A program made the translations under genes and the position numbers. The notes below the pieces were generated by a model. It was not told the origin of the DNA. It ran no database searches and saw only the letters and a program-made list of their open reading frames with translations. Positions 3,132 through 42,845 of a stretch of 58,823 bases of DNA are shown piece by piece (positions within the stretch are counted from its first letter, which is position 1; each line of letters opens with the position of its first letter). Origin of the DNA: Patescibacteria group bacterium (GTDB lineage Bacteria > Patescibacteriota > Minisyncoccia > Phycocordibacterales > Zambryskibacteraceae); the NCBI GenBank assembly GCA_004322205.1, contig SCSN01000007.1, positions 1 to 58,823 on the forward strand, given 5' to 3'.

Positions 3132-3159
3132 TTGTAGAGCTATCTAATTGTGTTATGAT
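3132..3159 (+). promoter_or_regulatory. Sigma70-like promoter of the radical SAM gene
   Basis: TTGTAG, 16-nt spacer, TGtTATGAT (extended -10). GGAG lies 6 nt before the ATG at 3213. Confidence 0.5.
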
Positions 3160-3212
3160 GACAACAGAACGTACCATAACAGCTTGCGTTTTCACTTCGA
3201 CTGGAGACGGAA

Positions 3213-4181
3213 ATGACCACCATTATGGAACGGGTTGACAGAACGGCCAGGATCCCGCCCACACATCTGCGCGTGGATCCGCCGCCACCGCGCTCAATCA
3301 AGATCGAGATCACCGGCGTCTGCAACCTGCGTTGCGGCTTCTGTGCCCTCACAAAGCGACCGATCCAACCAACGAAGCCGATGGAGTGGGGACTCCTCGA
3401 GCGACTCATCCGAGAGAGTCGGGAGTTCGGAATCGAGGAAATCGGGGCTTTCTACATCGGAGAATCGTTTACGGCCACCGACGAGCTTGTCGCCACAGTC
3501 AGACTCGGGAAGGAGGTCGGTTACAAAAACCGATTCCTGACTTCAAACGCGACTATCTCGACACCGGAGCGGGTGAGAGCGGCAATCGAGGCAGGACTCA
3601 CTTCCCTCAAATGGAGTGTCAACAACGCGAACGCAAAACAATTCGCTGAGGTGACGCAGAGACCCGAGCGTCTGTTCTACATGGCGCTCGAGAACATCAA
3701 GGCGGCCCTGGCAGTTCGTGACGAAGTTTTCAGACGGACAGGGCACTGGTGCGAGCTCTCCGCCTCAAGCATCCGCTACAATGCGGAGCAGATGAGGCTC
3801 ATGCAACCGTTTCTTGAGAAGCATGTCCTGCCCTTCGTCGATCATCACTACAAGCTTCCGCCTTACACCATGGGCGGACCGCCGATCGATCAAGAGCTCC
3901 AACTCGGCATCATTCCAACAGCCGGCAATCAAGGTCGGATTGGTGCTCTTGTCGATCCAATCCCCTGCTGGGCAGTCTTCAACGAGGCGCATGTTACCTC
4001 GTCGGGCATGCTCACCGCCTGCTGCTTCGATGCCGACGGCTCATGGACAATGGCCGACCTGAAAAAGGTTCCCCTTGCGACTGGCTGGCACAGCGATGTT
4101 TTCAAGACACTGCGCCTAGCGCATCTCAAGGGCGATGTCCGAGGTACGGTCTGCGAAAGGTGCGCCCTCTACGTGGGCTAG
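3213..4181 (+). CDS. Radical SAM protein with Cys-rich C-terminal (SPASM/twitch-like) region
   Basis: 322-aa ORF with CxxxCxxC (VCNLRCGFCAL) near the N-terminus and C-terminal cysteines (CW.., TACCFD, CERC). Visibly GC-richer than its neighbours. Confidence 0.85.
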   Translation: MTTIMERVDRTARIPPTHLRVDPPPPRSIKIEITGVCNLRCGFCALTKRPIQPTKPMEWGLLERLIRESREFGIEEIGAFYIGESFTATDELVATVRLGKEVGYKNRFLTSNATISTPERVRAAIEAGLTSLKWSVNNANAKQFAEVTQRPERLFYMALENIKAALAVRDEVFRRTGHWCELSASSIRYNAEQMRLMQPFLEKHVLPFVDHHYKLPPYTMGGPPIDQELQLGIIPTAGNQGRIGALVDPIPCWAVFNEAHVTSSGMLTACCFDADGSWTMADLKKVPLATGWHSDVFKTLRLAHLKGDVRGTVCERCALYVG

Positions 4182-4202
4182 CGGGAGTAAGAACGCAAGA
4201 CA

Positions 4203-4243
4203 AACGCCGCTCTCGTTTTCACGAGAAGCGGCGTTTTCCTTTT
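4203..4243. terminator. Bidirectional hairpin terminator between convergent genes
   Basis: aacgccgctctcg / cgagaagcggcgtt stem followed by ttttcctttt. Confidence 0.75.
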
Positions 4244-4257
4244 ACCCAAAAATTCTT

Positions 4258-5967
4258 TTACTTTCCCAAGAACGGTTCTATAAAAGCCGAGATGACATTT
4301 GCCATCAAACTTCTGACATTGGCACGGAAGAAACTTGTTGGAGCGGGCTCGGAAGGAGGTGGGGTAATGTAACCTTCAGGTGGCTGATAGCCCTCCGGCG
4401 GTTGATACGACCCGCCCTGATAGTCTGGCGGAGGGGAATAGCTCGACGGGTACTGACTTCCATCAGGTGGTGGGGGAAAGGCGTCGGGCGGCGGATAACT
4501 TCCCTGATATTGTCCGGAGGGGTATTGACCTCCCGGCGGCGGGAAGCCTCCTTGTGACTCTCTGTTATATTGCGAGCGGAATTCTTCCTGACGCTCTCGC
4601 ATCATTTTCTCCATCTCTTCCCTGCTCATATTCGGCGGAAATTGCCCAATCCCCTCGCCACCGCGAAACTGCTCTGACGGAGGATGTTGGCCGACTCCCG
4701 ACTCACCTCTTCTGAGCTGGGAAGGAGGGCTTGAACCTTCCGGGGGACGGAAGCGATTGCAGACTTCGGCATTGGCGGGGTCGGAGCAGAAATTGCGGCA
4801 CTCTTCCGGAGTCTTACATCCGCCCGGACCATTCATCGTCCCCGGCCCGACACTGGGAGGGAAACTACCTTCTCCCCTAAACTCACCTTCATTCTCACCT
4901 TCTCCTCGACGAGTGCTGAAATACTGCTCAAAGCACTGGTGCATCTTCTCGCCAAGCTCTCGTGACGGAGGTCGAGCGCCGTTTTCAATCTGACTCAAAA
5001 CTTCACTGCCCACCGTGTCCTTGAGACATTGAACAACCTCCGGCGGAGCATTCGTCAAACCTTCTCGAAATTGGGACATTCCCTCTTTCATGCGCTCCCG
5101 CTCCTCCGGCGGAATAAGGTCGTGCTCTTCGGCAAATTTGAAACACTCGTCCTGATGTTCTTGACAGTAGGCTTCACACTGCTCCTTACCGCGGCAGCCG
5201 CCGGGACCCTTGCCGCCAGTTTTCCGAATCATTTCTGCTTCTTCGGGCGGGATTATTCCTGCCTCAAGCCCAAATTGAATGCACTTTTGAAGTACCTCAT
5301 CACTCTGGGGATTCTCACATTGCTCAAACTCCTTTGGGGAACGGAAGGGTGCTTTCCCCTCTTCTATCAGACGAAACATCTTCTCTGCCTTCTCTCTATC
5401 CACGTTCGGCGGCAAGAAACCAGCTTTTTCAGCAAAGGCGAAACACTCTCGAGCCACCGCTACTGTCTGCGGGTCCTCGCAAGTTGCGCGGCATGACTCC
5501 TTATTGGTACACCCGGCCGGGAGTTTCGCCCCCTGATCAAGGGCGCGAATGACCCTCTCCGCCTCTTCGAGTTCACCGCCGCTCATGAGACCGTGGTTCT
5601 TGGCATAGACAACACATTCTCGGATATTGGTTGTGGTGTTGCAGTACGTCTCGCAGCTTGCCTCTGGATTTGCCGCTCCAACGGCACACTGCCCCGGACC
5701 GCCATCCTCTAGAATCACATCAAACTTATCATCACGATCTTGAGAGACATCAAGCCCGTGCTTGGCCGCGAAGGCTTGGCAGGCGGAAATATTCGCCGGA
5801 GCGTCACAGTAAACCCTGCACTCACCTTCATTGGCGCAATTGCCAAGCTCCGGGACGGGAAAGGTGATATCAAACGGCGAGTTGGCAAAAGCACCGGAAA
5901 CGAAAAGAGTGAAAATAAAAAATGCGGTCAAAAAAACCGCACTACTCAAAAGGATTCTTGTATTCAT
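4258..5967 (-). CDS. Secreted Cys-rich modular repeat protein with Pro/Gly/Tyr/Gln-rich tail
   Basis: 569-aa ORF with an N-terminal signal/TM segment. At least 6 modules of C-x5-10-C-x3-C-x6-11-C followed by F/YA..HG/AG(L/F). C-terminal about 120 aa is low-complexity PPxGxY/Q. Confidence 0.75.
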   Translation of the reverse strand: MNTRILLSSAVFLTAFFIFTLFVSGAFANSPFDITFPVPELGNCANEGECRVYCDAPANISACQAFAAKHGLDVSQDRDDKFDVILEDGGPGQCAVGAANPEASCETYCNTTTNIRECVVYAKNHGLMSGGELEEAERVIRALDQGAKLPAGCTNKESCRATCEDPQTVAVARECFAFAEKAGFLPPNVDREKAEKMFRLIEEGKAPFRSPKEFEQCENPQSDEVLQKCIQFGLEAGIIPPEEAEMIRKTGGKGPGGCRGKEQCEAYCQEHQDECFKFAEEHDLIPPEERERMKEGMSQFREGLTNAPPEVVQCLKDTVGSEVLSQIENGARPPSRELGEKMHQCFEQYFSTRRGEGENEGEFRGEGSFPPSVGPGTMNGPGGCKTPEECRNFCSDPANAEVCNRFRPPEGSSPPSQLRRGESGVGQHPPSEQFRGGEGIGQFPPNMSREEMEKMMRERQEEFRSQYNRESQGGFPPPGGQYPSGQYQGSYPPPDAFPPPPDGSQYPSSYSPPPDYQGGSYQPPEGYQPPEGYITPPPSEPAPTSFFRANVRSLMANVISAFIEPFLGK

Positions 5968-6485: not shown

Positions 6486-6486
6486 T

Positions 6487-7146: not shown

Positions 7147-7497
7147 TCAGAACAGCGGGAGTTCATCGAGCGGGGTTCTGGGGTTACACTCAACCCGGTA
7201 CCTCAACCCTTGAAGTTGCTCACGCAATTGGGCGGTCGGCGTGGTGTTAACCAGATCTTCAACCCGCCACAGAAAAGCTTGAAGTTCTTCACGAGCGTTG
7301 AAATCCAACTCCGCTTCACATTGATGAACCTCTGCCTCGATGCTCTTGAGTGTTTTATTCACCTCATCGGCAAGGTTCAAGCTGCGAGGAATTCGACTCC
7401 TGAGCTCCTCACAAAGCTTCAGAATTCGCTTGAGGTGGTAAGGGGGACTTTCCGTGTCAACCACCGCTTCCGGCTTCTCGGTCTGGCTTGTCGACAT
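7147..7497 (-). CDS. Hypothetical protein, helical/coiled-coil-like orphan
   Basis: The ORF track gives 7147..7536. An internal ATG at 7497 is preceded by GAGGAA 5 nt upstream. No recognisable motif. Confidence 0.5.
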   Translation of the reverse strand: MSTSQTEKPEAVVDTESPPYHLKRILKLCEELRSRIPRSLNLADEVNKTLKSIEAEVHQCEAELDFNAREELQAFLWRVEDLVNTTPTAQLREQLQGLRYRVECNPRTPLDELPLF

Positions 7498-7650
7498 CTG
7501 TTCCTCTGTGAACTGGGTCCTCGGACATTCAAGCATAAAAAATTTTGAAACACAAGGGGGAGTAGAATTATGAGTAAAGGGGGCATATAGTATGCTCTGC
7601 TTGGAATCCTTATTGGATGAGGAAATTCAGAAATCTAGTAATATCCCACC

Positions 7651-10224: not shown

Positions 10225-13200
10225 CTACCAGCCCCAGCCGGGATCGATGTTCCAGGCTCGCAGACGGCCCCACCACACTGATTGGGGTATGATCGGCCCT
10301 TGATTCATGTTTCGCCCCAGCGCCATTCCATATATTGAACTCCTGTTAATTACCGTGTTCTTGATTGACATAAGTGGAACGCCGTCTATCCTGATTTCCA
10401 TAAGACCATCTGGAACATTCGTAGCAGACGATACTTTCATGTGTTCTCTGATATAATGCCACTGGCCGTTAGTAATTACGCTCCACTGAATACTTGCTGG
10501 ACCCCCCGACAGGAAGAATTGTTCATTGTCGGGCGGGCCTCCTGAATAATTTCTTCTCGGTGGATTGCCTAGCCCTTGGCTACCTACGACTAGACTGAAT
10601 CTTGATACGCTAGGATACACTCTTCCAAATAGGAATTTATAACCATTTGATGAGACTCCAGTACATTGTTGAACATAAGTTTCAAACCCGGGAGTGAATT
10701 TAAACCATCCTTCAAACCAAACTTCCTTTTCTTGTTTAGGGAATTGTATATTTCTTCCTATAGTATAATCGCGACAAAGATTTGGATCATTTGTTCGGTC
10801 TGGGAAATCGTATCGCATGCTCTTTCCTGTCATTCCTGGCGGAGTATCAGTATCAAGAGCAATCCTATTTACACCCTTATCCTCATTAGCACCACTCCAC
10901 ATTGGGTTCGGATAGGCGAGAAGATCTGCTGTTGTTGAATAATTACTAAAGTCTTCTTCTATCCAAGGTTGTACTCCTGCAGTTACCTTTATGAGAAAAT
11001 CTTCCACGCTCCAGCCGTCAGGAAGAGAGGCGTAATATATATTCCACCAATTATATCCACCTGCTGCTACTGGACCGCCTCTGACTGTGCCTTGAGCGCC
11101 CAAAGCTTGAGTCCCAAGCAGAGTGCCATTTGGCATAGCTCTGACGTTGAGGAGGTTGGCGGTGGTTTGGACAAAATCTCCAATTTGGAATTTGGTTGAA
11201 GACGGTTGTGTCACGGTTACGGTAGTGCTCTGGTTTGTGGTTCCCCCACTTCCGGTACATGCGAGAGTGTAGGTAGTTGTGACTGCGGGAGTAACTAATT
11301 GACTTCCTGATGCGCTAGTTAATGTCGTCCAAGGTGCGAAGCATGAAGTAGCATTTATTGAACTCCATGTGAGGGTTGAAGGGCCGGCTGTTATTGAGGA
11401 AGGAGAAGCAAAGAGAGTGACGATGGGAGCCGAGATACCACTATTCACCGCCGTTCGCCATCTTGCAATATAAACGTAAGCATCCTGTAAGATTGGACTT
11501 GGTGAACCGTTTGTTGGGTTCCAAGTTAATCCGCGGAAACCGGGATTGCCAGTAGGGGGAGTTATCATAATATTCTGAGCGTTTATTCTCCTAACTCCGT
11601 CAACCCACAACTCAAATGATCCATCACTTTGCCCAGGCGTTCCGGCTCGAATACGACGCTCCACCAAATACCATTTACCAAGTGGCAAAAGCGCAAACGA
11701 GGTCGAGTACTGCTGTCCCAAACCAGTGTACGCTCCACCAAATTGCGTTGCGAACCCAAATTTAAATGCGTTTGGACCGTAGAAGCCAATAAAGTGGTTC
11801 GTCAATCCATTGTTTGGATTCTGCAAATAAAATCCAAATTTCGCTCCATTATTCTGGGCTGGCTCAACATAAGCTGGGTCGTGCATTATATAGAAAGCAT
11901 CATAGACATCAGAAAACACTTGCGAATTAGCAAATTGCAAATCCACCCTGAATGGCGCCGCGCCAGCCGGAGTTCCAGCGCCATACTTTCCTTCCAAAAC
12001 TTTGGTTTGTCCCGTTGGAGACAACGGCAGACCTTTTGTCACCAAATCAGCAATCGTAAATCTTCCAGCTCCCGAAGTTATAGTCCATAGACCATTAGAG
12101 ATACTACCGGTTGGCGGGACAGTTGTATTAAATGTTTCGTCAGAAATTACCGTGTGCCCTGATGGTTGGTTCGGGAATTGTACTGGTGTCGGTGTTGGGG
12201 TTGGGGTTGGGGTTGGGGTTGGGGTAGAGCCAGACCAGCCGGGATCTTGATCCCAGGTGCGCACACGTCCCCACTGCACTCGCACAACACTGTTGGCGGT
12301 CTGCTGATTCATATTAGCTCCCAGCGACCAGCTCCAGATCTTGCCGCCCTGTGCTGAAACAATGCCAGAATCATACTGAAGCACTCCGTCAAGCCATACC
12401 TGTAAGATTCCGCTGGAACCGCGCTTGGCGTGAAATCGGAAAGTGTGCGGCTGATTATCGGCGTATTTAGCCCATGAAGGTTTATTTAAGGTGACCGGTG
12501 AAAAACCCGGAACCTCGTAGCTTGTTTGGTGCGTCTGGAAAATTCCGATCATGTTTCCGAACCGCTGTGCACCAGATGGAGGTTGGGGCGACGTGATACG
12601 CGCAAAGATATATTTGTATGCGCTGCTGCTCTTTCCTACGCACTCGGGTGCGTAGGTCTCAAAGTTCACGAGTCGCACTTCGAACTCCCCCCAGACTTCG
12701 TCCAAAGGACGGCCGGTTCCGCCCGCAACGCCCGTGCCAAAGTCCATGTTGGGACCAATTGAGTGATCTATACAATTAGCCGTAGCGCCACGTTGGAACT
12801 TGTATTCCATGTAAGCGCCGTTCGAACCGAAGCCGGGAATCCACTCTGAATCAAGACCCTTGGCAGGATCGTTGTCTATGTATTGGTAACGCAAGAAAAC
12901 ACTGTTCGGATCATCCGCAGGTTCGTTCGTCCAGACACCATTAGGATTGGAAGCGCTATAAATGTCCGAGAGCATAGCCGTCTTGGTATTCCAGCGGCTG
13001 AATTGAATATCTTGGAATGGCTGAACCGATGCAGAAGACACGCTAACCGTAGCAGATTGACTAGCACTTCCTCCCGCTCCTATACAAGTAAGAGTGTAAG
13101 TAGTGTTTACTGTCGGTGAAACTAATTGAGTTCCCGAGATTGCTTTTGTTCCTGACCATCCACTACTTGCCGTGCATGAAGTGGCATTGGTTGAGCTCCA

Positions 13201-14490
13201 AGTGAGAGTTGATGATTGGCCTGGTGTGATTGTGGTTGGTGGGGCGGTGAGGGTGACGGTAGGGGTAGGAGTCGGCGGAGAGCTGTAGACAGCACTGACT
13301 TTTGCTGCGTATGGGCAAAATCGCTTCCCCAACCATTGAGAAAGAGTGGACTCTACATAGGATGGTCTGGCATCACAAACTTCCATGAAGACCTGGCCTA
13401 GAACTATGGTGGAAGGATCAAGATGCCAGCTCCAAGGCGAATTAAATCCCCCGTTACTTGAATTAATAATACCACTGACAATCAAACTTCTTGACCCGTT
13501 AAGATCATTGAGCGCTTGTTGAACAGTGGCTGGATCAGTCATTTTAACAAGAAACGATTCATTCTGGTTGTCTATCATGACGTACTTGAAGTATTTTGCG
13601 GTAGTTTGAGTGGTGACTGTCACGGTTGCGCTCTGACTGGCTGATCCACCCGAGCCGGTGCAGGTCAGAGTGTAGGTGGTGGTAATTGTCGGAAAGAAAA
13701 TTTGGGAGCCGGAGATTGAGCGCGAGCCGCTCCAGCCATTACTTGCCGTACAACTTGTGGCATTGGTTGAGCTCCATGTGAGTGTTGATGATTGACCGGA
13801 AGTTATTGAGGAAGGAAAAGCGGAGAAGGTGAGAGTGGGTGAGGGGGTGGGAGTTGGTGAGGGAGATGGAATCTCTGAAGAAACAGTGACTGTCACGCCC
13901 CGGCTTGCAGTTCCCCCGCGGCCGGTGCAAGAGAGGGTATAGAGAGTGGTGGTGGTCGGGAAGAAAGATTGCTCGCCGGAGGTTGAACGTGACCCGTCCC
14001 ATCCGCCGGAAGCGCTACAAGAGGTGGAGTTGGTGGAGGACCAAGTCAGAGTGACAGCTTGACCTGAAGTAATAGCGGCCCGGCTAGCGCTCAAAACAAC
14101 GGACGGTTTTTCGGCTATCGGCTCTGTTCCCTTTTCAGAGGCGGTAGTGACGGTAACTGACTTTGAAACCGTACCGAAAGAAAGAGTGTAAGTGGTAGTT
14201 TGAAGAATGGGCTTGGTCACCTTGTCCCCTTTGTAATTAACAAAAAGGTTTGCAAACTGTCCGCCGTTCAATTTGCCGTCAGGACATGCGGAGCTTGCCT
14301 GCCAAGCGAGAACTACCTCCTGCCCCGCCGCGATTGAAGATGGGTTTGCAGTAAATGAGCTTATGGTGCAAAGCGATGAAGAAACTTCGGCGAGATTGCG
14401 CGAAGTGAGCGTGGAAATGAGAGTACTAATATTCTGAATAGCAAAAAGCAAAGCCGCCGCGATCGCCGCGGACAGGATTAAACGCTTCAT
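10225..14490 (-). CDS. Giant secreted multidomain surface protein
   Basis: 1421-aa ORF with a signal peptide. It has at least 6 copies of a ~90-aa Cys-pair Ig-like module (TLTWSSTNATSC..GW.GS....TTYTL.C.G.GG), an SH3b-like segment and PT linkers. Two paralogous ~260-aa jelly-roll-like modules end in WGR(V/L)R(T/A)W..DPGW, and a third related module ends YIARWRTAV. Confidence 0.85.
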   Translation of the reverse strand: MKRLILSAAIAAALLFAIQNISTLISTLTSRNLAEVSSSLCTISSFTANPSSIAAGQEVVLAWQASSACPDGKLNGGQFANLFVNYKGDKVTKPILQTTTYTLSFGTVSKSVTVTTASEKGTEPIAEKPSVVLSASRAAITSGQAVTLTWSSTNSTSCSASGGWDGSRSTSGEQSFFPTTTTLYTLSCTGRGGTASRGVTVTVSSEIPSPSPTPTPSPTLTFSAFPSSITSGQSSTLTWSSTNATSCTASNGWSGSRSISGSQIFFPTITTTYTLTCTGSGGSASQSATVTVTTQTTAKYFKYVMIDNQNESFLVKMTDPATVQQALNDLNGSRSLIVSGIINSSNGGFNSPWSWHLDPSTIVLGQVFMEVCDARPSYVESTLSQWLGKRFCPYAAKVSAVYSSPPTPTPTVTLTAPPTTITPGQSSTLTWSSTNATSCTASSGWSGTKAISGTQLVSPTVNTTYTLTCIGAGGSASQSATVSVSSASVQPFQDIQFSRWNTKTAMLSDIYSASNPNGVWTNEPADDPNSVFLRYQYIDNDPAKGLDSEWIPGFGSNGAYMEYKFQRGATANCIDHSIGPNMDFGTGVAGGTGRPLDEVWGEFEVRLVNFETYAPECVGKSSSAYKYIFARITSPQPPSGAQRFGNMIGIFQTHQTSYEVPGFSPVTLNKPSWAKYADNQPHTFRFHAKRGSSGILQVWLDGVLQYDSGIVSAQGGKIWSWSLGANMNQQTANSVVRVQWGRVRTWDQDPGWSGSTPTPTPTPTPTPTPVQFPNQPSGHTVISDETFNTTVPPTGSISNGLWTITSGAGRFTIADLVTKGLPLSPTGQTKVLEGKYGAGTPAGAAPFRVDLQFANSQVFSDVYDAFYIMHDPAYVEPAQNNGAKFGFYLQNPNNGLTNHFIGFYGPNAFKFGFATQFGGAYTGLGQQYSTSFALLPLGKWYLVERRIRAGTPGQSDGSFELWVDGVRRINAQNIMITPPTGNPGFRGLTWNPTNGSPSPILQDAYVYIARWRTAVNSGISAPIVTLFASPSSITAGPSTLTWSSINATSCFAPWTTLTSASGSQLVTPAVTTTYTLACTGSGGTTNQSTTVTVTQPSSTKFQIGDFVQTTANLLNVRAMPNGTLLGTQALGAQGTVRGGPVAAGGYNWWNIYYASLPDGWSVEDFLIKVTAGVQPWIEEDFSNYSTTADLLAYPNPMWSGANEDKGVNRIALDTDTPPGMTGKSMRYDFPDRTNDPNLCRDYTIGRNIQFPKQEKEVWFEGWFKFTPGFETYVQQCTGVSSNGYKFLFGRVYPSVSRFSLVVGSQGLGNPPRRNYSGGPPDNEQFFLSGGPASIQWSVITNGQWHYIREHMKVSSATNVPDGLMEIRIDGVPLMSIKNTVINRSSIYGMALGRNMNQGPIIPQSVWWGRLRAWNIDPGWGW
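12185..12226. repeat. Hexanucleotide microsatellite (GGKGTY)7 encoding a (PT)7 linker
   Basis: ggtgtc ggtgtt then ggggtt x4 and ggggta, in frame inside the giant ORF. Confidence 0.9.
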
Positions 14491-20579: not shown

Positions 20580-20581
20580 AT

Positions 20582-20947: not shown

Positions 20948-21476
20948 CTGCTTTCTTGCCCTGCTTGAGTTTGATAACTTCGCCTTGGTAGCGAATGCCC
21001 TTGCCTTTATAGGGCTCCGGTTTTTTGAGAGAGCGCAGGCGTGCCGCGAATTCGGTAACGAGCTCCTTGCCGACGCCGGAGACAGTCAGAACATTTTTCT
21101 CCACCGTGATGGAGAGTCCGGCGGGAATAGGCACTTCAACCGGATGAGAGAAACCCAGGGCAAATTGAAGTTTGTCGCCCTTGAGCTCAACTCGGTACCC
21201 AATGCCTTCCACCACAAGTTTTTTGCTAAATCCTTCCGTGACACCCCTCACCATATTTGTGACGTGCGAAGCATAGGTGCCGCGCAGTATCCCCACTCCT
21301 GGGCTCTCTCCCCTCGGCTCCACCCGGAGTTGCGAGTCAGAAGCAACCACATTGAGAGACGGCGGCAGAGTACGAGAAGTTTCCCCCAGTGGCCCCTTGA
21401 CGACAACGGTATTGCCGCTCACGCTAACCGTTACTTTCTCCGGGATGACAATTATTTTTTTTCCGATTCGACTCAT
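20940..21476 (-). CDS. rplF: 50S ribosomal protein L6
   Basis: MSRIGKKIIVIPEKV.. The ATG at 21476 lies inside the longer track ORF (to 21527). TATAAT at 21483-21488 is 6 nt upstream. Confidence 0.93.
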   Translation of the reverse strand: MSRIGKKIIVIPEKVTVSVSGNTVVVKGPLGETSRTLPPSLNVVASDSQLRVEPRGESPGVGILRGTYASHVTNMVRGVTEGFSKKLVVEGIGYRVELKGDKLQFALGFSHPVEVPIPAGLSITVEKNVLTVSGVGKELVTEFAARLRSLKKPEPYKGKGIRYQGEVIKLKQGKKAVA

Positions 21477-21526
21477 GCCAATATTATACGAACGATACGA
21501 GCGAAGTGAGCAAATAAAATTGAGCA

Positions 21527-21654
21527 CCCCCCACTAACTTTTCCACTCACCAGCCTCGATTTCTCGTCCCATGGACGAAAAATCATTTTTAATACCAGCA
21601 TGATATATAAATTATTCTTCATATAAATCATTGTTCTGAAAAGTTAGTGGGGGG
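21527..21654. repeat. Family-A intergenic hairpin element (copy A1) between rpsH and rplF
   Basis: 17-bp perfect terminal inverted repeat ccccccactaacttttc / gaaaagttagtgggggg. Internal hairpin tcgtcc-cat-ggacga. Conserved aaatcattgttctgaaaagt end. Confidence 0.8.
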
Positions 21655-21705
21655 TAGAGTTTCGCAATCTCTGTTTGCTTCAGCAAGCAAACAGAGGGCG
21701 AATTC

Positions 21706-23822: not shown

Positions 23823-23863
23823 GCCAATATTATATGAGCGAAGCGAATAATAATATTGAGCAT

Positions 23864-23990: not shown

Positions 23991-24005
23991 TTGTGTAATT
24001 CATGG

Positions 24006-25978: not shown

Positions 25979-26332
25979 TTATTTCGATTCTTGGGAACTT
26001 TGAGTGGGGGCGGCCTTGGCAGCTTGGGCGGCGGCGATCTCCGCCTCACGCTTTTGCTGCTCAAGCTCTTTCTGGATTTTCCCTCCGTGCCGAACAAACT
26101 TGCGAGTCAGAGCAAATTCTCCCAGCCGGTGCCCCACCATATCTTCCGTCACAGAGACTTCAATATGCTCCTTGCCGTTGTGCACGCCAAAAGTAAAACC
26201 GACCATCTCGGGAGCAATCTGGCTATCTCTCGCCCAAGTGCGAATCACTCCGACCTTGTCAGGCTTTTTACCCTCAATTTTTTTGAGGAGTTTTTCGTAG
26301 ACGTACGGACCTTTCTTTGACGAGCGAGTCAT
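25979..26332 (-). CDS. rpsS: 30S ribosomal protein S19 with ~25-aa C-terminal extension
   Basis: [11 protein letters not shown].. from the ATG at 26332 inside track ORF 25979..26353. Confidence 0.93.
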
Positions 26333-26393
26333 ATTGAAAAAAGAAGCTCGCAAGAGCTTCGCAAGATACTAGCAAATGAGCCCTTCTTGTCAA
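26333..26393 (-). promoter_or_regulatory. Re-initiation promoter plus 5' hairpin-U6 immediately upstream of rpsS
   Basis: Minus strand: TTGACA (26388-26393), 16 nt, TAGTAT (26366-26371). Then GAAGCTC-ttgc-GAGCTTC (26343-26360), TTTTTT, caat, ATG. Confidence 0.5.
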
Positions 26394-26400: not shown

Positions 26401-26440
26401 ATGAAAATACCCCAGCGTCCGCTTATGCGGCGCGCTGGGG
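26401..26440 (-). terminator. Hairpin terminator at the 3' end of the inserted gene
   Basis: CCCCAGCG..CCGC-ataa-GCGG..CGCTGGGG followed by tattttc. It overlaps the stop codon at 26423. Confidence 0.65.
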
Positions 26441-27070
26441 TATGCGCGGGAGGAACGGCCAGACGAGCCGAACCATTCCACCCCGCACTCGGAGAGCCCA
26501 ATCTGCTTTGAGCGGAACTGGGTTGTCTCCAATCCTCCGTCCCTTCCCATCCTTGCGCCATTGAAGTATGGACCCACCTAGAGAGTCGATGACCGGGATC
26601 CGATGTTCGAAGTTCATCGAAATCCAAGTCTGCTCCATGGTGTTCCGATACGCCCTCACTCGCCAAAAAGCATCGGCGAGCAGGCGCACCAGTTCCACCC
26701 GGGCGTCGCGCAAGCGCTTCACCTTTTGTTGATCGAGCTTTCGACCAAACCACGGTGGAAAGAAGACAAAGCGCAACATGTTGTAGCGCCGCCTGTCCTT
26801 ATCCAACCTTCGCTGGAACTGTACATCGGCAAGCCACCACCCTTCTAGCTCAAGATCAGCGAGAAGTTGGCGACCGGTGACCGGTTCTGTCTCGCGAATA
26901 AACTTAACACTCTTCCATTCGCGAGATTTGCGGGTTTCTACCTCCTTCTTTGATTCGTCGGAGAGTCGCCGAATCCAACATCGCGGAACCGCCTGGTCGT
27001 TAGAGAAGCTGAACTGCAGACGAAGCTCGTCCAGCTCCTGATCGAGCATTCCGGGAAACTCCAGAGACAT
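26423..27070 (-). CDS. Hypothetical 215-aa protein inserted between rplB and rpsS
   Basis: ATG at 27070 with GGAGGAG 6 nt upstream. Arg/Trp-rich, no motif recognised. Visibly GC-richer than the flanking r-protein genes. Confidence 0.7.
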   Translation of the reverse strand: MSLEFPGMLDQELDELRLQFSFSNDQAVPRCWIRRLSDESKKEVETRKSREWKSVKFIRETEPVTGRQLLADLELEGWWLADVQFQRRLDKDRRRYNMLRFVFFPPWFGRKLDQQKVKRLRDARVELVRLLADAFWRVRAYRNTMEQTWISMNFEHRIPVIDSLGGSILQWRKDGKGRRIGDNPVPLKADWALRVRGGMVRLVWPFLPRIPQRAA

Positions 27071-27130
27071 GGTTGTCTCCTCCAAAGTTGGTGGACAATA
27101 ATGGGATTAATTTCTAGGAACTCTTCTCTA

Positions 27131-27160
27131 ATTATATCATAACATATAATAATTTGTCAA
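27131..27160 (-). promoter_or_regulatory. Near-consensus sigma70 promoter of the inserted gene
   Basis: Minus strand: TTGACA (27155-27160), 18 nt, TATAAT (27131-27136). Confidence 0.6.
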
Positions 27161-27189
27161 TACCAAAACCAGCCCCTTGTTTAGGGCTG
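27161..27189 (-). terminator. Hairpin plus U-rich tract after rplB
   Basis: CAGCCC-taaacaag-GGGCTG followed by gttttggtatt on the minus strand. Confidence 0.55.
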
Positions 27190-27235
27190 ATTGATGTTTG
27201 CAAAACCCAAAGCCAAAGACACGAAGCTTAAAGTC

Positions 27236-28075
27236 CTAGCGTTTTCTTACCGCGCGGCGTTTGATTATGAACTTGTTGGAGTATTTTTTCGCTCGGCGAG
27301 ACTTTTGCCCTTTGCCGGTGGGTTTGCCGAAGACGCTAATCGCCCGGCGGCGCCCTCGCCCAGCTCTGCCTTCTCCTCCTCCATGAGGATGATCCACCGG
27401 ATTCATGGCCGTCCCGCGCACCGTCGGGCGAATGCCGAGCCAGCGGCTGCGCCCCGCTTTGCCGAGGCGCATCAGGCGATTTTCTTCATTGGAAACTTCT
27501 CCCACCGTCGCCCAGCAATTTTCAGAAACCATCCTCACTTCAGTTGAAGGCATTTTGAGATGAGCATAGCCTCCGTCTTTGGCAACAACTTCGATATAAT
27601 TGCCGCCGGAGCGCCCGAGTCTGGCACCCCCGCCCGGTTTCAGTTCAGTGTTATAAACAAACGTCCCGACGGGAATATTTTTAAGCGGCAGACGATTGCC
27701 AGAAGCAAGCGGGGCAGTTTCTGAAACAAGATAGGTGTCGCCAACCTTTGCGCTCTTGGGAAGCAATACGTAACGCCGCGACCCGTCTTTATAAACGGCA
27801 AGACCGACAAAGCCGCTGCGATTTGGATCATATTCAATTGTCCGCACAGTAAACGGAATGTCGCGTTTATCGTATACAAAATCAACAAGTCGGTAGAGAC
27901 GCTTGTGTCCGCCCCCTTTGTGGCGCACGGTAATTCTTCCTAAGCGGTTGCGGCCAACGGCGCGCTTTCTGCCGAAAGTTAGATGCTTCACCGGCTCGCC
28001 TGCCGTCACAGCGGCGCCGTAGGAGAGGGAAGTCATCTGGCGTCGTGATGGAGTTGTTGGTTTATACTGTTTCAT
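27236..28075 (-). CDS. rplB: 50S ribosomal protein L2
   Basis: 279-aa ORF, typical L2 (..MNPVDHPHGGGEGR..). Confidence 0.96.
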   Translation of the reverse strand: MKQYKPTTPSRRQMTSLSYGAAVTAGEPVKHLTFGRKRAVGRNRLGRITVRHKGGGHKRLYRLVDFVYDKRDIPFTVRTIEYDPNRSGFVGLAVYKDGSRRYVLLPKSAKVGDTYLVSETAPLASGNRLPLKNIPVGTFVYNTELKPGGGARLGRSGGNYIEVVAKDGGYAHLKMPSTEVRMVSENCWATVGEVSNEENRLMRLGKAGRSRWLGIRPTVRGTAMNPVDHPHGGGEGRAGRGRRRAISVFGKPTGKGQKSRRAKKYSNKFIIKRRAVRKR

Positions 28076-28121
28076 GTTAGAGATTGTTAGTGAGCGAACG
28101 CGAGCTTACAAGACTCTTACA

Positions 28122-28249
28122 CCCCTCACTTACTTTTCCTCTTAAAATAAGCGATTTTTTGTCTGCAAGACAAAAAATCATTTTCAACTCTTGCGTATAA
28201 CCCAAACTAACATTTTTGTAAATCATTGTTCTGAAAAGTAAGTGGGGGG
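28122..28249. repeat. Family-A intergenic hairpin element (copy A3) between rplW and rplB
   Basis: Terminal inverted repeat cccctcacttacttttc / gaaaagtaagtgggggg (one G:T). Internal hairpin gattttttgtct-gca-agacaaaaaatc. Confidence 0.85.
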
Positions 28250-28277
28250 TTGAGTAATTTATATTCACTTCGCTACG

Positions 28278-28640
28278 TTAAATTACTTCAATCTTCTCTC
28301 CCGCTTTCAAATAGACATACGCCTTCTTGCCGCCGGCCTTCATGCCGCGTCTGCGCCTGCTAAAAATTTTCTTGCGGGGAACATAAGTTACGGCGACTTT
28401 GCGCGGCTTGACCTTGTAGACAAACTCAACCGCTTGGCAGATATCGCGCTTCGTTGCTTCGGGAGAAACTTCAAAAACATAGACATTATCGGCCGTTTTG
28501 TCGGTCGCCTTCTCCGTCACTCGCGGGCGAATGAGAATGTGATCGAGAGCGCGAGAGGGAGTAACGCTTGATTCAGCGCGCTCCGGCGCTTTCTCCTCTT
28601 TCTTCTTTTCTTCCCTCTTCTTTTTACCAAAAAGAGCCAT
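28278..28640 (-). CDS. rplW: 50S ribosomal protein L23 with N-terminal Lys/Glu-rich extension
   Basis: 120-aa ORF, L23 core ILIRPRVTEKA.. Confidence 0.93.
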   Translation of the reverse strand: MALFGKKKREEKKKEEKAPERAESSVTPSRALDHILIRPRVTEKATDKTADNVYVFEVSPEATKRDICQAVEFVYKVKPRKVAVTYVPRKKIFSRRRRGMKAGGKKAYVYLKAGEKIEVI

Positions 28641-31933: not shown

Positions 31934-32301
31934 GGTTAGTGGATCTTACTTTCGAAAATTCATCGCACGAGAGAGTGGTGAATTTCCAAAACTAAGTAAA
32001 TGAACTATTGATAATGTTGTTTACTATTAACAAACAAGCCACCCCATCATGCAAAGGGATGGACGCGAAAAATGCGTGGGGAATATCATAGCAAAGCAAA
32101 AAGAATAGTCAAATCGGTATTAGTCACGCCACGGCGGGGTTGTCACCGCGTCAAACTCTCCAGTTTCTATAAAAACGAAAACCCCAACGAAACATTCGCA
32201 TGAATACCCCTTGCTTGTAAACTGTCACAACTAACTCATTTAATATGTAATATCCGATCATAGCACTTCTCAAATTCATTGCGACCGCGTATAATTTGTG
32301 T

Positions 32302-32862
32302 ATGGGTGAGATTGAGAGAAAATCAGCGAGAAAACTAAAATACAAAAACATTCAGAATGCCGTTTTGGCAGTCGTAGCGACAGGTGTGTTTCTAAGTGCC
32401 GCCATTTTGGCTCCAAATGCTTTGCAAGTTTTTTCAAAACTCGGAATTACCGGAAAAAGAAAACGGGAAGGTGTAAGCCGAGCTCGCGACAGACTACTTG
32501 AAAAAGGAATGTTGAAGAAAGATGAAAAAGGATATTTGCAAATAACAAACAAAGGGCGCATCAAGCTTGGAATGAGACACGAGCTAGTGAGAAAGCCAAT
32601 GCGCTGGGACAAAAGGTGGAGAGTTCTTATATTTGATATCCCAGAAAAAAGAAAGGAGGTTAGGAATAAAATACGACAGATGTTAATTTCGGCTGGATTT
32701 CTTAGATTACAGGATAGCGTGTGGGTTTACCCGCATAATTGTGAAGACTTTGTGGCTCTTCTAAAAGCAGATCTGCACATTGGCAAAGATCTGTTGTATC
32801 TGCTTGTTGACTCAATAGAAAACGATAAGTATTTAAAAGAAGAGTTTGATTTGAAAAAATAG
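32302..32862 (+). CDS. PaaX-like / Cas2-fold (ferredoxin-like) putative regulator
   Basis: 186-aa protein. The C-terminal WDKRWRVLIFDIPEKRKEVRNKIRQMLISAGFLRLQDSVWVYP matches the PaaX C-domain/Cas2-like pattern. TATAAT (32290-32295) is 6 nt before the ATG. Confidence 0.65.
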   Translation: MGEIERKSARKLKYKNIQNAVLAVVATGVFLSAAILAPNALQVFSKLGITGKRKREGVSRARDRLLEKGMLKKDEKGYLQITNKGRIKLGMRHELVRKPMRWDKRWRVLIFDIPEKRKEVRNKIRQMLISAGFLRLQDSVWVYPHNCEDFVALLKADLHIGKDLLYLLVDSIENDKYLKEEFDLKK

Positions 32863-37491: not shown

Positions 37492-37658
37492 AATACCTAA
37501 TTCATTCAACTCCGACCGGCGGATGCGGGGCGGGGGCGTTCAGACCAAGGGGGCAGAAGTAATCTAAATTGTCAATGGGATTTGGGGGGTTTTTCCTTTG
37601 ACAGGGGGCTTGCCCAGCGAGACACTTGAAAGGCACGCTCTTTAAACAAGGAGCAAGT

Positions 37659-37973
37659 ATGACGGCAGTATCATCTCCACCGCTGGATGCGAGGTCTGGT
37701 TCCGATCATAGAGAATATCTCGTCAGGCTAGACAATGCCTGGCAGATCACACTCTCCGTTTTAAATAGCAAGCGCTACATTGACGCAACGCTTGCTCGAG
37801 ACGAGGGAGTGGCATCTTCCATCGCCCGGGAGATATTCTCCATCGAAGGAATAGATTCCTTGGTCATCGAGGCAGGTGGGAACATCCGCGTCGATTTGCT
37901 CAAGGGGTACTCCTTCGATGACGGGGTCGGGCCAAAGGTCCTCGCAGTCATCAAGCGCCACCTTGGTTCCTGA
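37659..37973 (+). CDS. Small orphan protein with Nfu_N-like C-terminal pattern
   Basis: ATG at 37659 preceded by AAGGAG 5 nt upstream. SSIAREIFSIEGIDSLVIEAGGNIRVDL...KVLAVIKRHL resembles the Nfu/NifU N-terminal scaffold domain. GC-richer. Confidence 0.55.
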   Translation: MTAVSSPPLDARSGSDHREYLVRLDNAWQITLSVLNSKRYIDATLARDEGVASSIAREIFSIEGIDSLVIEAGGNIRVDLLKGYSFDDGVGPKVLAVIKRHLGS

Positions 37974-37987
37974 CCGGGGTGGCGTCT

Positions 37988-39490: not shown

Positions 39491-39501
39491 AGTCCAAAAC
39501 G

Positions 39502-41028: not shown

Positions 41029-41786
41029 GTTTCAATAGTATCGTTCTCCTCCTCAAGAGAAAAAGTTTTTTTGAATTTTGCACCGGAGACGCCTTTTACC
41101 CTCTTCTCGCACTCTGCCCAGGTTTTGTAAGTTTTAATGATTCCGTTAACCAAACTAACGTAAGAATAAGCTTTTTTCGTAGATCGTGGAGCGTGGAACG
41201 TGGAGCGTTTGAGGATGGTGGAGGCCGAAATATCTATTCCGTATTTCTTAAGAAAACCAGAATAGAGTTTTGATCTCTTGCCGCCTGCCCTGCCGGCAGG
41301 CAGGTCCGCGAACATTGTGGCAATCTCGTCGCATCGCTCATTTGCGGCAATTCCAGAGTGTCCGGGCAACAATTTCCATTCGATCTTCAGACCTTTGCTT
41401 ACCTTCAAGAACCTTCTCCACAAATCTTGGTTCTCCACCTTCTTCTTTGTCTTTGTTTTCCATTTACTTTTTACCCACCCGTGAACCCACGTCCCGGCGC
41501 CGTTTAGAACATAGCTAGAATCCAGATAAACTTTTAACCTATAACTTTTAACTTGCAACTTTTTTACAAATTCAAGCGCCTTTATTAGCGCCGTCAGTTC
41601 CATCCGGTTGTTGGTTGTTCTTTCAACTCCGCTCCCTAATTCCTGAACCCATTCCTGATTCTTTATTCTTAATTCTTTATTCCGCATTGTAATTTTGCCC
41701 GCTGGCAAAATTACAATGCTTCCCCACCCTCCCGGTCCGGGATTACCACGTGAAGCACCATCAGTAAAAATAGTTATCTTCTGCAT
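41004..41786 (-). CDS. rnhA: Ribonuclease HI fused to a C-terminal hybrid-binding (viroplasmin-like) domain
   Basis: FTDGASRGNPG, NNRMELTA, YLDSSYV, GHSG..NERCDEIA. The C-terminal YSYVSLVNGIIKTYKTWAECEKRVKGVSGAKFKKF resembles the RNase H1 HBD. Confidence 0.85.
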   Translation of the reverse strand: MQKITIFTDGASRGNPGPGGWGSIVILPAGKITMRNKELRIKNQEWVQELGSGVERTTNNRMELTALIKALEFVKKLQVKSYRLKVYLDSSYVLNGAGTWVHGWVKSKWKTKTKKKVENQDLWRRFLKVSKGLKIEWKLLPGHSGIAANERCDEIATMFADLPAGRAGGKRSKLYSGFLKKYGIDISASTILKRSTFHAPRSTKKAYSYVSLVNGIIKTYKTWAECEKRVKGVSGAKFKKTFSLEEENDTIETWKKELRS

Positions 41787-41803
41787 GCGAGAAGTCTAGC
41801 ACA

Positions 41804-41836
41804 TGAAAAACGCCAGGCACCGTCCGGTGCCTGGCG
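41804..41836 (-). terminator. Rho-independent terminator just upstream of rnhA
   Basis: cgccaggcacc-gtcc-ggtgcctggcg followed by ttttt on the minus strand. Confidence 0.85.
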
Positions 41837-41898
41837 GGAAAGACCCAAGGTTCAAAGTTTCAGGAACTTGCCTGCCCCGTGGCAGAGCTTCGCTCTGC

Positions 41899-42050
41899 TT
41901 ACAGGGCGCGGACAGCCGCGGGGTAATCCCGGCCCCGGGCGTCAAAGAGCCAGCGCCAGCTCGCGATCACCCGCTCGCCGTGCCAGACGAGACACGCCAC
42001 GCACCGGCCGTAGCCGCCGGTGACTATTCCCCTACCACCGCTTGTATAGT
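41899..42050 (-). pseudogene. Orphan C-terminal fragment paralogous to the 3' end of the 42146..42762 gene
   Basis: The translation ..GGYGRCVACLVWHGERVIASWRWLFDARGRDYPAAVRAL* aligns with ..GGDRFVASLVWSDEWVIVSWHWLEFDWNRSNPAAVRASS*. It lies downstream of a strong terminator and has no convincing start. Confidence 0.55.
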
Positions 42051-42051
42051 A

Positions 42052-42088
42052 GCACGAAAACCGCCCAGCGCGCGTGCGCGCTGGGCGG
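42052..42088 (-). terminator. Strong GC-rich rho-independent terminator
   Basis: 12-bp perfect stem ccgcccagcgcg-cacg-cgcgctgggcgg followed by ttttcgtgc (minus strand). Confidence 0.85.
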
Positions 42089-42145
42089 AGGATCGAGTCC
42101 CAAAGGATCCAAGTACAAGATCCAAGAGACTCAAGGTCAAAAGTT

Positions 42146-42762
42146 CTAGGAACTTGCACGGACAGCCGCGGGATTGCTCCGATTCCAGTCGAACTCAAGC
42201 CAGTGCCAGCTCACGATCACCCACTCGTCGCTCCAGACAAGAGAGGCGACGAAGCGGTCACCGCCACGGTCCCGAACGCTTCTCCAAAGGAAAACGTTCT
42301 TACCCTTGAACTCTTCCGGGTAGGTGTCGGGTTCGCTAGCCAGCCCTTGACTTCTTCGTCCTTGAGCGAGAGACAGCGGTTGATGATACCCGTCTCGCGG
42401 AGGTGCTTCTCGAGATCATAACCCTTGATCAGGCCGCCCTCTTTTTGTTTGGGGTGGAAGTAGAGCTTGATCCCTGTCGTCTTCGGCTCGGTTTCGGTAA
42501 GAGTCTGTTCTGCTGTCGAATAGCCGCACACGGGACAGCTCAACTTCTTATCCAAAACCTCGAGAAATGACCCGCAGTTCGGGCATTCGCTTCGAGGTAC
42601 AACGTGGGCTCTCTTCGGAATAGGAACCCAGCACGGCTCACGGCGAAGAAATCTCTTCGCCTCCTCTGTCCACCTTGTTGAATCGTTGCCTAGAAGGCAA
42701 TCCTCGAACTGGTCGCGTAGTCCGCGAATATCGCGGAGTTTCGCTCTGAGCGTGTTGTCCAC
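42146..42762 (-). pseudogene. Zn-ribbon protein of unknown function, reading frame broken by a 1-nt frame change near 42329-42331
   Basis: GTG at 42762 with AAGGAG 6 nt upstream; CPNC..CPVC ribbon. Frame A stops at 42217. From about 42330 another frame reads ..PDTYPEEFKGKNVFLWRSVRDRGGDRFVASLVWSDEWVIVSWHWLEFDW.. to the stop at 42146. Confidence 0.6.
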
Positions 42763-42817
42763 GGTCAGCTCCTTTTTTGAGGTACTGGCGGCTACTATCT
42801 TTCACCGCTCTGGTACT

Positions 42818-42845
42818 ACTATATCAAAAACTCCGTAATTGTCAA
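42818..42845 (-). promoter_or_regulatory. Near-consensus sigma70 promoter of the Zn-ribbon gene
   Basis: Minus strand: TTGACA (42840-42845), 16 nt, TATAGT (42818-42823). Confidence 0.55.

Follow-up and report, generated by a model that had tools for sequence, protein, structure and literature searches.

In a groundwater Parcubacteria/Paceibacterota (CPR) bacterium of Zambryskibacteria-like affiliation, represented by a window of 58,823 nucleotides that is the whole contig, and in its relatives, a sharply placed canonical Shine-Dalgarno (SD) motif is almost exclusive to species-specific genes of unassigned function, which at the level of sequence amounts to a clade-wide split in translation start signals. 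Probably, the SD marks a fast-turnover class of self-contained accessory genes in an otherwise SD-independent lineage. The clade comparison comprised 80 related Parcubacteria loci (RplB 63-77% identical), all anchored at the ribosomal-protein cluster, so that the association between SD and ORFans covers that region; ORF starts in the relatives were set by a first-ATG rule.

The clearest manifestation of this split is the positional distribution of AGGAG/GGAGG, which peaks at -14 to -9 with 67 matches among the 347 ORFs seen in at most two loci, against about 0.7 per position elsewhere. The sharp peak, placed relative to the first ATG, is observed for rare ORFs only, while conserved ORFs have about 10 matches in 20 upstream positions when about 60 are expected. 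Strong SD motifs precede 15.7% of singleton ORFs and 0.2% of the ORFs present in at least 20 loci (p=1.7e-22). The difference persists where the upstream spacer is at least 60 nt (19.2% of singletons vs 0.3-1.3% of conserved genes, OR 42, p=3e-21). Far from being equally frequent at native genes, a strong SD was found at 4 of 900 alignment-anchored conserved starts, and three of those four correspond to the rpsL leader hairpin. The SD context reaches AAGGAGGT, which is complementary to the canonical tail ACCUCCUU. Across relatives the rplB-rpsS gap measures between 59 and 9,699 bp, and unrelated SD-led ORFs come after rplB in more than 20 species.

Within the window, the original prediction had assigned canonical SDs to five orphan genes, and all five motifs were verified. 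Three of them are strong, that is, contain the 5-mer AGGAG or GGAGG at a spacing of 3-10 nt: orph3 (GGAGGAG, N6), orph4 (AAGGAG, N5) and orph5 (AAGGAG, N6). The GGAG of rSAM and the GAGG of orph2 are 4-mers only; the background for such matches is 6.6-7.7% per site and, therefore, these two motifs are no more than chance. The accompanying claim that housekeeping genes lack an SD was borne out, since a 4-mer at 4-10 nt precedes just one of the 58 other genes (hyp138, a weak AGGA), and SD-like runs at wrong spacing occur at secY, rpsE, comEC and rpsL (12-21 nt; GAAGGGG at 3 nt for rpsL). The division into two classes of start signals likewise stands and holds across the 80 related loci, the SD class being formed by accessory genes with raised GC3. 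For native genes, sequence features predict leaderless starts, leaders with a hairpin and U-run, or operon coupling. In seven genes (0.33 expected), exactly 6-7 nt separate a -10-like hexamer from the start codon: 6 nt in rplF, rplN, hyp204, MBL and HIT and 7 nt in recJ and rpsE. The leadered type is exemplified by rpsS, whose 5' hairpin is followed by a U-run and the ATG, and rpsN has the same build (Table 1). In many relatives, the same succession of promoter, hairpin and U-run is found ahead of rpsS and rpsL, with covarying stems.

Table 1. Positions of the five orphan genes and of representative native start signals in the window
Feature	Positions	Strand	Elements
rSAM, radical SAM/SPASM, 322 aa	3203..4181	+	GGAG 3203-3206, 6 nt, ATG 3213
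orph2, 116-aa ORF	7147..7506	-	GAGG 7506-7503, N5, ATG 7497
orph3 cassette, between rplB and rpsS	26423..27192	-	rplB terminator hairpin 27192-27167; promoter TTGACA (27160-27155)-18-TATAAT (27136-27131); leader; SD GGAGGAG 27083-27077; ATG 27070; 215-aa ORF, end 26423
orph4, 104-aa ORF	37648..37985	+	SD AAGGAG 37648-37653; ATG 37659; end 37973; terminator hairpin 37955-37985
orph5	42146..42845	-	promoter TTGACA 42845-42840, TATAGT 42823-42818, 16-nt spacing; SD AAGGAG 42774-42769; GTG 42762; called ORF end 42217; ancestral stop 42146
Partial second orph5 3' end	41899..41988	-	reads ...VWHGERVIASWRWLFDARGRDYPAAVRAL, then stop
rplF, leaderless example	21476..21488	-	TATAAT ends 6 nt before ATG
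rplN, leaderless geometry	23834-23822		
hyp204, leaderless geometry	32290-32302		
MBL gene, leaderless geometry	38857-38845		
HIT, leaderless geometry	44695-44707		
recJ, leaderless geometry	44696-44683		
rpsS, leadered, SD-less example	26332..26393	-	TTGACA-16-TAGTAT promoter; hairpin 26360-26343; U-run; ATG 26332
rpsN, same build as rpsS	22334-22279		

An assembly check indicated that the orphans sit integrally in the genome in two samples. The rSAM gene, located after the tmRNA terminator and with an extended -10 TGTTATGAT about 53 nt upstream, contains the cluster motif CNLRCGFC (CxxxCxxC) and matches PF04055 (40.2 bits, cut-off 29.5) and PF13186 (34.3, cut-off 21.5); it reached no NCBIfam equivalog at its cut-off, had no close relative in JGI metagenome contigs and matched no PDB entry by sequence. 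The coding status of orph2 is doubtful: its codon-model margin over other frames is just 0.027 per codon, and its library matches are itself and two marginal ones (E about 1e-4). In orph3 the terminator hairpin of rplB stands ahead of a promoter matching the consensus at 12 of 12 positions, followed by a leader of about 50 nt and an ORF with a coding-frame score of +25; both junctions of the cassette are spanned at even depth by contigs from two groundwater runs. Its protein matched only itself in 5.8 billion proteins and was found in none of the 80 relatives. Likewise, orph4, whose neighbours are rpmB and the comEC-associated MBL gene, matched only itself in the protein-library search, and in relatives its slot lacks the gene and forms a gap of 1 to 3840 nt. 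Altogether, searches of libraries of 5.8 billion and 1.8 billion proteins returned for orph2, orph3 and orph4 either no homologue or marginal coiled-coil matches only.

The case of orph5 is different in that relatives exist. The gene has been frameshifted by the loss of 1 nt from a Pro codon (within 42336-42320), and three-frame translation recovers the ancestral reading; the reconstituted protein (205 aa) aligns with 12 proteins, over as much as 100% of its length. The family is small, and all contigs on which it was found here are Parcubacteria-like; where the context is visible, gene order is of the Parcubacteria type. An AAGGAG-like SD at 5-7 nt precedes nearly every member, whereas core neighbours lack it, and the block AAAGGAGCTGACC is invariant in five loci. 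One relative (L081) carries a syntenic orthologue at the same position between recJ and rnhA, whose SD and spacer are identical to those of orph5 despite a protein identity of only 34-51%. Because of this syntenic orthologue with identical SD and spacer, sequence comparison supports the conclusion that orph5 is vertically inherited and that its SD has been maintained within the lineage itself. The partial second copy of the 3' end includes a similar 3' UTR and terminator, and contig depth there is about 260x vs about 180x in the flanks.

Could the dichotomy be illusory, the five motifs being chance matches aided by the choice among alternative starts? The window data taken by themselves leave room for it: 6 of 63 genes score under the 4-mer criterion, a proportion equal to background, the 5-mer criterion gives three genes vs 0.92 expected (P=0.064, borderline), and orph2 has an earlier ATG at 7536 (129 aa) without an SD. 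All three strong-SD genes are orphans (Fisher p=2.5e-4), with the orphan label assigned post hoc, and strong significance is reached only once the related genomes are added to the window data. In four of the five, however, the start that follows the SD is the first ATG of the ORF or its first possible start codon; the SD is invariant across the orph5 family, and the positional peak and rare-ORF association recur in 80 independent genomes (p about 1e-21), which refutes chance at the clade level. As a general account it is thus very improbable, while for rSAM and orph2 individually it is the likeliest one. It is equally improbable that the SD-led ORFs are non-functional, that is, spurious frames in non-coding or decaying mobile DNA of higher GC, whose SDs would be fossils from another source. 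Such an account would fit the lack of a Pfam family in 48 of 51 SD-led ORFans, the frameshift and partial duplication of orph5, the low-confidence AlphaFold models (pLDDT 59 and 43) and the near absence of coding signal in orph2. Against it, GC3 exceeds that of core genes by 0.075 in SD-led ORFans and by 0.006 in ORFans without an SD; since SD-less singletons, which would include spurious ORFs, lack the excess, it is specific to the SD class. The sharp placement of the SD relative to the first ATG, the clear native-frame coding scores of orph3, orph4, orph5 and rSAM, and the intact orph5 relatives with conserved residues in other genomes are also at odds with decay.

A further possibility, put forward in the original prediction, is that the five genes were acquired together or from one type of SD-using donor, such as a host, and kept its SDs and composition, perhaps as one functional set. 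It would be in line with the absence of orph3 and orph4 from the syntenic sites of all relatives covering them (those of rSAM and orph2 being covered by no relative), with the self-contained architecture of the units, which all bring a promoter, an SD and a terminator of their own, and with the raised GC3 of the five genes (0.63 vs 0.55, Mann-Whitney p=0.002) and of SD-led ORFans clade-wide. The description of the five as compositionally odd was nevertheless only partly right: synonymous codon usage falls inside the native range in four of them (z -0.3 to -1.2; orph4 outlies at z=-3.3), with the native codon model the highest-scoring frame is in each of the five cases the gene's own, and the genes that deviate most (big1427, rnhA, hyp204 and sodA) all lack an SD. 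Among these, hyp204, the most deviant inserted gene (GC 0.39), is leaderless. Near-consensus TTGACA promoters, expected at three of the five, are clear at orph3 and orph5, orph4 having TTGACA alone, and they also occur at native rpsS and rpsN. A shared foreign origin was not supported either, given the vertical inheritance of orph5 and the native codon frames. No homologue in a candidate donor lineage was recovered for orph2 to orph5, the orph5 relatives lying on Parcubacteria-like contigs, and the results for orph2, orph3 and orph4 preclude naming a donor. Nor was a functional relationship among the five substantiated: the other four are absent from every contig carrying an orph5 relative, the flanks of the five contain no shared repeats, and family searches gave no family common to the five. 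As regards mobility, no integrase or target duplications were found, no mobile-element family was matched by the five, and there was no phage or defence-family signal. A common donor is improbable. Slightly less so, by analogy with Bacteroidia, would be a regulatory scheme in which the anti-SD tail is usually unavailable and SD-bearing mRNAs are translated by a ribosome sub-population or under particular conditions. In Flavobacterium johnsoniae, three ribosomal proteins (bS21, bS18 and bS6) sequester the anti-SD, and rpsU, which bears an SD, has a higher translation rate on ribosomes that lack bS21 (PMC7797042, PMC9976891). None of the genes for these three proteins lies in the window. This precedent, the strict SD conservation in the orph5 family and the depletion, rather than mere absence, of SD-like motifs ahead of core starts would suit such a scheme, although AT-rich upstream regions could also yield depletion. 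The SD would then be a conditional-expression tag on accessory genes, compatible as an added layer with the accessory-class explanation favoured here. Bacteroidia resemble the present clade in that core genes lack an SD and depend on other features upstream, and that very few genes keep a strong, conserved SD (PMC7797042, PMC9976891, PMC13000453). In Flavobacterium, however, the SD gene is the ribosomal protein gene rpsU, with autoregulation and demonstrated sequestration, whereas the SD-led genes here are species-specific ORFans, compared by analogy, and leaderless promoters are common here.

Under the accessory-class explanation, core genes would start without SD pairing, with SD-like motifs depleted ahead of their starts: operon-first genes would often be leaderless, with the -10 box 6-7 nt before the ATG, the remaining ones would carry a 5' hairpin and a U/A-rich tract in a short leader, and operon-internal genes would combine close spacing with A/U-rich upstream sequence. 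The canonical-SD minority would consist mostly of small, species-specific, function-unassigned genes (orph3, orph4 and orph5, possibly rSAM and orph2), each a putatively self-contained unit in which its own promoter of sigma-70 type is followed by a leader of 25-55 nt, an SD with the consensus AAGGAGG(T) placed 4-9 nt ahead of the start codon, the ORF and finally a terminator. These units appear to occupy permissive intergenic slots that differ between species, such as rplB/rpsS and rpmB/MBL, and may constitute a flexible, fast-turnover part of the genome, through a within-clade mobile gene pool or very rapid divergence. The ribosome of the Parcubacteria themselves would read the SD and hence would have kept an anti-SD tail of the canonical type. 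Leadered monocistronic mRNAs may depend on the SD for want of the 5'-proximal or coupled start that core genes have.

It is important to remark that the SD could not work as proposed if the clade lacks the CCTCCT motif, which Tsurumaki et al. (2022) detected in just 48% of Parcubacteria 16S genes (PMC9297842). That study, on the same phylum-level group, described less frequent detection of the anti-SD motif in a Parcubacteria subgroup and is an independent indication that core translation can dispense with SD pairing (PMC9297842). It examined 16S tails, whereas the present analysis examined mRNA-side signals. The conserved, correctly spaced SDs described here would argue for a usable anti-SD in this clade; neither the window nor any of the 100 related loci retrieved contains an rRNA gene. 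Phage "morons" and integron cassettes are likewise small function-unassigned genes that bring expression signals of their own, have been inserted among unrelated genes and differ between close relatives. In mixed-signal genomes of the GeneMarkS-2 model, the SD reportedly serves ordinary operon-internal genes; here, operon-internal core genes lack it and the SD is confined to accessory ORFans. Leaderless genes, whose -10 box lies about 6-7 nt ahead of the start codon, nonetheless coexist with SD-led ones in those genomes as they do here (PMC6028130). Compared with morons and integrons, no prophage context, integrase or attC-type flanking repeats were found around the present units, and, unlike most integron cassettes, each unit has its own promoter.

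Two classes of translation start signals are real in these bacteria and characterise the lineage, although the window taken alone makes a weak statistical case, with two of the five motifs near chance. In a table of 63 genes, whose starts were set by homology wherever this could be done, all five Shine-Dalgarno (SD) motifs of the original prediction were recovered at the positions claimed for them, and native genes, as it stated for nearly all housekeeping genes, have no SD at usable spacing. GGAGG-like runs at secY, rpsE and comEC lie 12-21 nt upstream, within the preceding gene, rpsL carries GAAGGGG just 3 nt upstream of its start, and the AGGA of hyp138, at 4 nt, is weak. A 4-mer SD at 4-10 nt is found in 6 of the 63 genes, against a background of 6.6-7.7% of arbitrary positions or ATGs. 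This is chance level, and therefore the GGAG of the radical SAM gene (rSAM) and the GAGG of orph2 carry no weight. For 5-mers, three were observed and 0.92 expected (P=0.064). The five genes, described as compositionally odd, are only modestly so: their GC3 is higher (0.63 vs 0.55, p=0.002), and their synonymous codon usage is unremarkable except in orph4. The truly deviant genes are big1427, rnhA, hyp204 (GC 0.39) and sodA, all of them devoid of SD. Under a native codon model the five genes of the prediction all score best in their own frame, orph2 only marginally.

The decisive evidence is the positional profile obtained from 80 loci around rplB of related species, in which ORFs were taken mechanically and classed by the number of loci with a homologue. 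Rare ORFs peak sharply at -14..-9, and conserved ORFs are almost empty over the 20 nt 5' of the start. In these loci a strong SD (AGGAG or GGAGG, 3-10 nt 5' of the first ATG) precedes 15.7% of singletons, 5.8% of ORFs present in 2-4 loci, 1.1% of those in 5-19 loci and 0.2% of those in at least 20 (p=1.7e-22). The contrast persists when only ORFs with an upstream spacer of at least 60 nt are counted (19.2% of singletons vs 0.3-1.3% of conserved ORFs; OR 42, p=3e-21), and operon position is consequently not the explanation. With starts anchored by alignment, a strong SD remains in only 4 of 900 conserved genes. Three of these four belong to the rpsL leader, where the GGAG pairs with CUCC as one arm of a hairpin that covaries between species; its sequence varies by species, and the rpsL motif of relatives was accordingly rejected as an instance of SD use by a core gene. 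The sites of rare ORFs extend around the GGAG core to AAGGAGGT, the sequence that pairing with ...ACCUCCUU would predict. Relative to the core genes of their own locus, SD-led ORFans are shifted in GC3 by +0.075 and SD-less ORFans by +0.006. No Pfam family was found for 48 of the 51 SD-led ORFans, none of the 51 bears a phage signature (PHROGs matches were limited to one ClpP-like, one transposase-like and one PG-binding protein), and a PADLOC defence search gave nothing significant.

Native genes start in other ways. A -10-like hexamer stands exactly 6-7 nt 5' of the start at rplF, rplN, hyp204, the MBL gene, HIT, recJ and rpsE (seven cases vs 0.33 expected), a spacing that, judged from sequence, is the geometry of leaderless mRNA. 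At rpsS and rpsN a 5' hairpin and a U-run separate a TTGACA/TAGTAT promoter from the start, a layout that recurs at rpsS and rpsL of relatives, and the other native genes show tight spacing within operons and A/U-rich sequence upstream. In the rpsL leaders of relatives (L017, L026, L032, L033, L039, L046, L076, L077 and others) a -10 box and a short hairpin precede a U-run abutting the start. The stems are often UCUCC...GGAGA/G and elsewhere GGCAGG or GCAA, and since they covary the leader is a conserved structure and not an SD; it may be autoregulatory or stabilising. A structured intergenic element of ~200 nt is found three times in the ribosomal-protein cluster, with 70-85% identity between copies and a 17-bp outer stem (CCCCCCACTTACTTTTC / GAAAAGTAAGTGGGGGG) around a perfect AT-rich hairpin; one copy has a predicted fold of -44.9 kcal/mol (z=-5.9), and downstream of the copies at rplF and rplN comes a TATAAT placed 6 nt from the ATG. 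Among the small genes of the window, hyp204 (GC3 0.37), an insertion between tuf and fusA that encodes a PaaX_M (Cas2-like) domain, deviates most in composition. Even so, the spacing of its TATAAT, 6 nt 5' of the ATG, predicts a leaderless mRNA, and homologues exist in a few relatives.

Features of the window, with the SD motif where one leads the gene
Feature	Position	Strand	Remarks
smpB	2180-2623	+	directly 5' of tmRNA
tmRNA	2673-3074	+	Rfam, 100.9 bits; overlooked by ARAGORN
rSAM	3213-4181	+	GGAG; after the tmRNA terminator
orph2	start 7497 (ATG)	-	GAGG
Ser/Thr-rich protein	10225-14490	-	1421 aa
antisense ORF	19368-19925	+	vs rplO
antisense ORF	20808-21509	+	vs rplF
~200-nt element	21470-21700	-	upstream of rplF
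~200-nt element	23816-24030	-	upstream of rplN
orph3	start 27070 (ATG)	-	GGAGGAG
~200-nt element	28069-28290	-	upstream of rplB
hyp204	32302-32862	+	no SD
orph4	start 37659 (ATG)	+	AAGGAG
antisense ORF	41800-42309	+	vs orph5
partial copy of orph5 3' end	41988-41899		downstream of orph5
1-nt deletion in orph5	42336-42320		in a Pro codon
orph5	start 42762 (GTG)	-	AAGGAG
palindrome	42897-42936		upstream of orph5 promoter
palindrome	45135-45172		after HIT
TrpR-like HTH gene	45254-45658
palindrome	45680-45715		before TrpR-like HTH gene
Ser/Thr-rich protein	54600-58007	-	1135 aa

Among the SD-led genes, orph3 is a model case of an autonomous unit. Located between rplB and rpsS, it comprises a terminator, a perfect TTGACA-18-TATAAT promoter, a leader of ~50 nt, the SD and the ORF; no homologue was found among 5.8 billion proteins, and its AlphaFold model (pLDDT 43) is too poor for a fold search. 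The rplB-rpsS junction is normally tight in bacteria. In this clade it is a variable slot, 59-9,699 bp wide, occupied by rplJ-rplL in many species, a MazEF-like pair, membrane proteins and 92 singleton ORFs. In more than 20 species an unrelated SD-led ORF lies directly 3' of rplB, and the region is illustrated by loci L016, L029, L031, L035, L036, L044, L054, L056 and L076. A subset of these ORFs forms a weak family of ~90-130 aa with a C-terminal AWE(Y/H)Y-type motif; a single family for all of them was rejected, the motif being weak and confined to that subset, from which orph3 is absent. A second variable slot, rpmB|MBL (gap of 1-3840 nt in relatives), contains orph4, for which no homologue was found, and in some relatives it also holds small SD-led ORFs. 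The rSAM product is a radical SAM/SPASM protein of no assigned subfamily, with no close relative in the metagenome scan and no PDB match by sequence. As for orph2, it has a weak coding signal and no real homologues, and is possibly a coiled-coil ORF.

More can be said about orph5, whose called ORF is cut short by the deletion. With the frame restored, its product resembles 12 proteins of 127-213 aa. This family has the conserved motif ...VKGWLANPxTYPEEFKGKxVFLW..., is absent from IMG/VR and gave an AlphaFold model (pLDDT 59) too poor for a fold search. One member occupies the same position between recJ and rnhA of a related contig, with flanking proteins 35-66% identical and an identical AAAGGAGCTGACC 5' of the start; others sit in the interval from rpsJ to rplC, 5' of rpsN, or as tandem pairs. 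Almost all members carry an AAGGAG-type SD, and none of their core neighbours does. Word-depth reaches ~260x over 41600-42927, which includes the partial duplicate, vs ~180x in the flanks, suggesting extra copies, either at another place in the genome or in strains that co-occur. A 1-nt deletion variant is seen at 41884 in one run. The similar segments 42260-42130 and 42010-41860 were considered as DGR template/variable repeats and rejected, for their differences are not adenine-specific, no reverse transcriptase is nearby and they represent a partial gene duplication. A palindrome of 36-40 nt (GACTTCCTTAGTGTATCATATATGATACACTAAGGAAGTC), present three times in this part of the contig, is a candidate operator or bidirectional promoter.

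The original prediction attributed the five genes to a shared foreign origin. What stands of that interpretation is that the SD class is the flexible genome, missing at the same sites in relatives and shifted in GC3. The foreign origin itself finds no backing, since there are no donor homologues, orph5 is inherited vertically, in synteny and with its SD conserved, and the five genes neither co-occur nor share marks of mobility. SD-led units may either move within a Parcubacteria gene pool or diverge in place beyond recognition. Turnover is favoured by the unrelated protein types found in the same slot, and some units do persist, as seen for the orph5 orthologue and the weak AWE(Y/H)Y-motif family 3' of rplB.

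Neither the window nor any of 100 related loci contained an rRNA motif, and when viral_contigs were scanned for the 16S 3' region, the sole match was an unrelated GC-rich organism whose tail is canonical. According to the literature, just 48% of the 16S genes of Parcubacteria had a recognisable CCTCCT motif (PMC9297842), and our results bear on reports that some Parcubacteria are without an anti-SD motif. SDs that are conserved, correctly spaced and correctly extended argue that the clade would have a usable anti-SD tail. The nearest studied analogue is Bacteroidia, a group with a sequestered anti-SD, in which a strong SD is essentially limited to rpsU. A broader reading, which we regard as rather improbable, is that in this clade SD/anti-SD pairing is kept almost exclusively for the flexible genome, the SD acting as the common expression signal of fast-turnover, GC3-rich ORFan cassettes in fixed intergenic slots, even within the ribosomal-protein cluster, and being avoided by the core. 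If this were true, core and accessory genes would have separable mechanisms of translation, with regulation perhaps separate too, by analogy with the bS21 switch of Bacteroidia. Lineages poor in SD are already known, as are genomes that mix start signals. The reverse arrangement, an SD found essentially at species-specific ORFans alone and avoided by the core, was not found described in the literature searched. Should it hold genome-wide, a simple sequence feature would be enough to mark the flexible genes of CPR bacteria. It also suggests that these reduced bacteria may be capable of controlling the translation of accessory genes independently of that of core genes. It is a warning, too, that gene callers trained on a single ribosome-binding-site model will place starts wrongly here.

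The 58.8-kb window is a complete public contig. It is present in two groundwater metagenome runs, at depths of ~180x and ~8x, and contigs of both span the orphan genes without differences, so these are not assembly artefacts. The closest RplB proteins among GTDB species representatives belong to Zambryskibacteria-like Parcubacteria/Paceibacterota MAGs (63-77% identity). Besides ftsH, smpB and tmRNA, the window carries infC, rpmI and rplT, the str, S10 and spc ribosomal-protein clusters as far as secY, adk and map, as well as comEC, sodA, rnhA, recJ, pgk, tpiA and a type IV pilus set; the gene table shows no uL30 between rpsE and rplO. Long antisense ORFs of 170-234 codons, most likely by-products of codon bias, run opposite rplO, rplF and orph5 and show that ORF length by itself is no evidence of a gene in this genome. 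Finally, two very large Ser/Thr-rich proteins, one of them adjoining the pilus genes, have signal-peptide-like N-termini and common internal repeat modules (motif ...TLTWSSTNATSC.ASGGWSG...), and are probably surface proteins.
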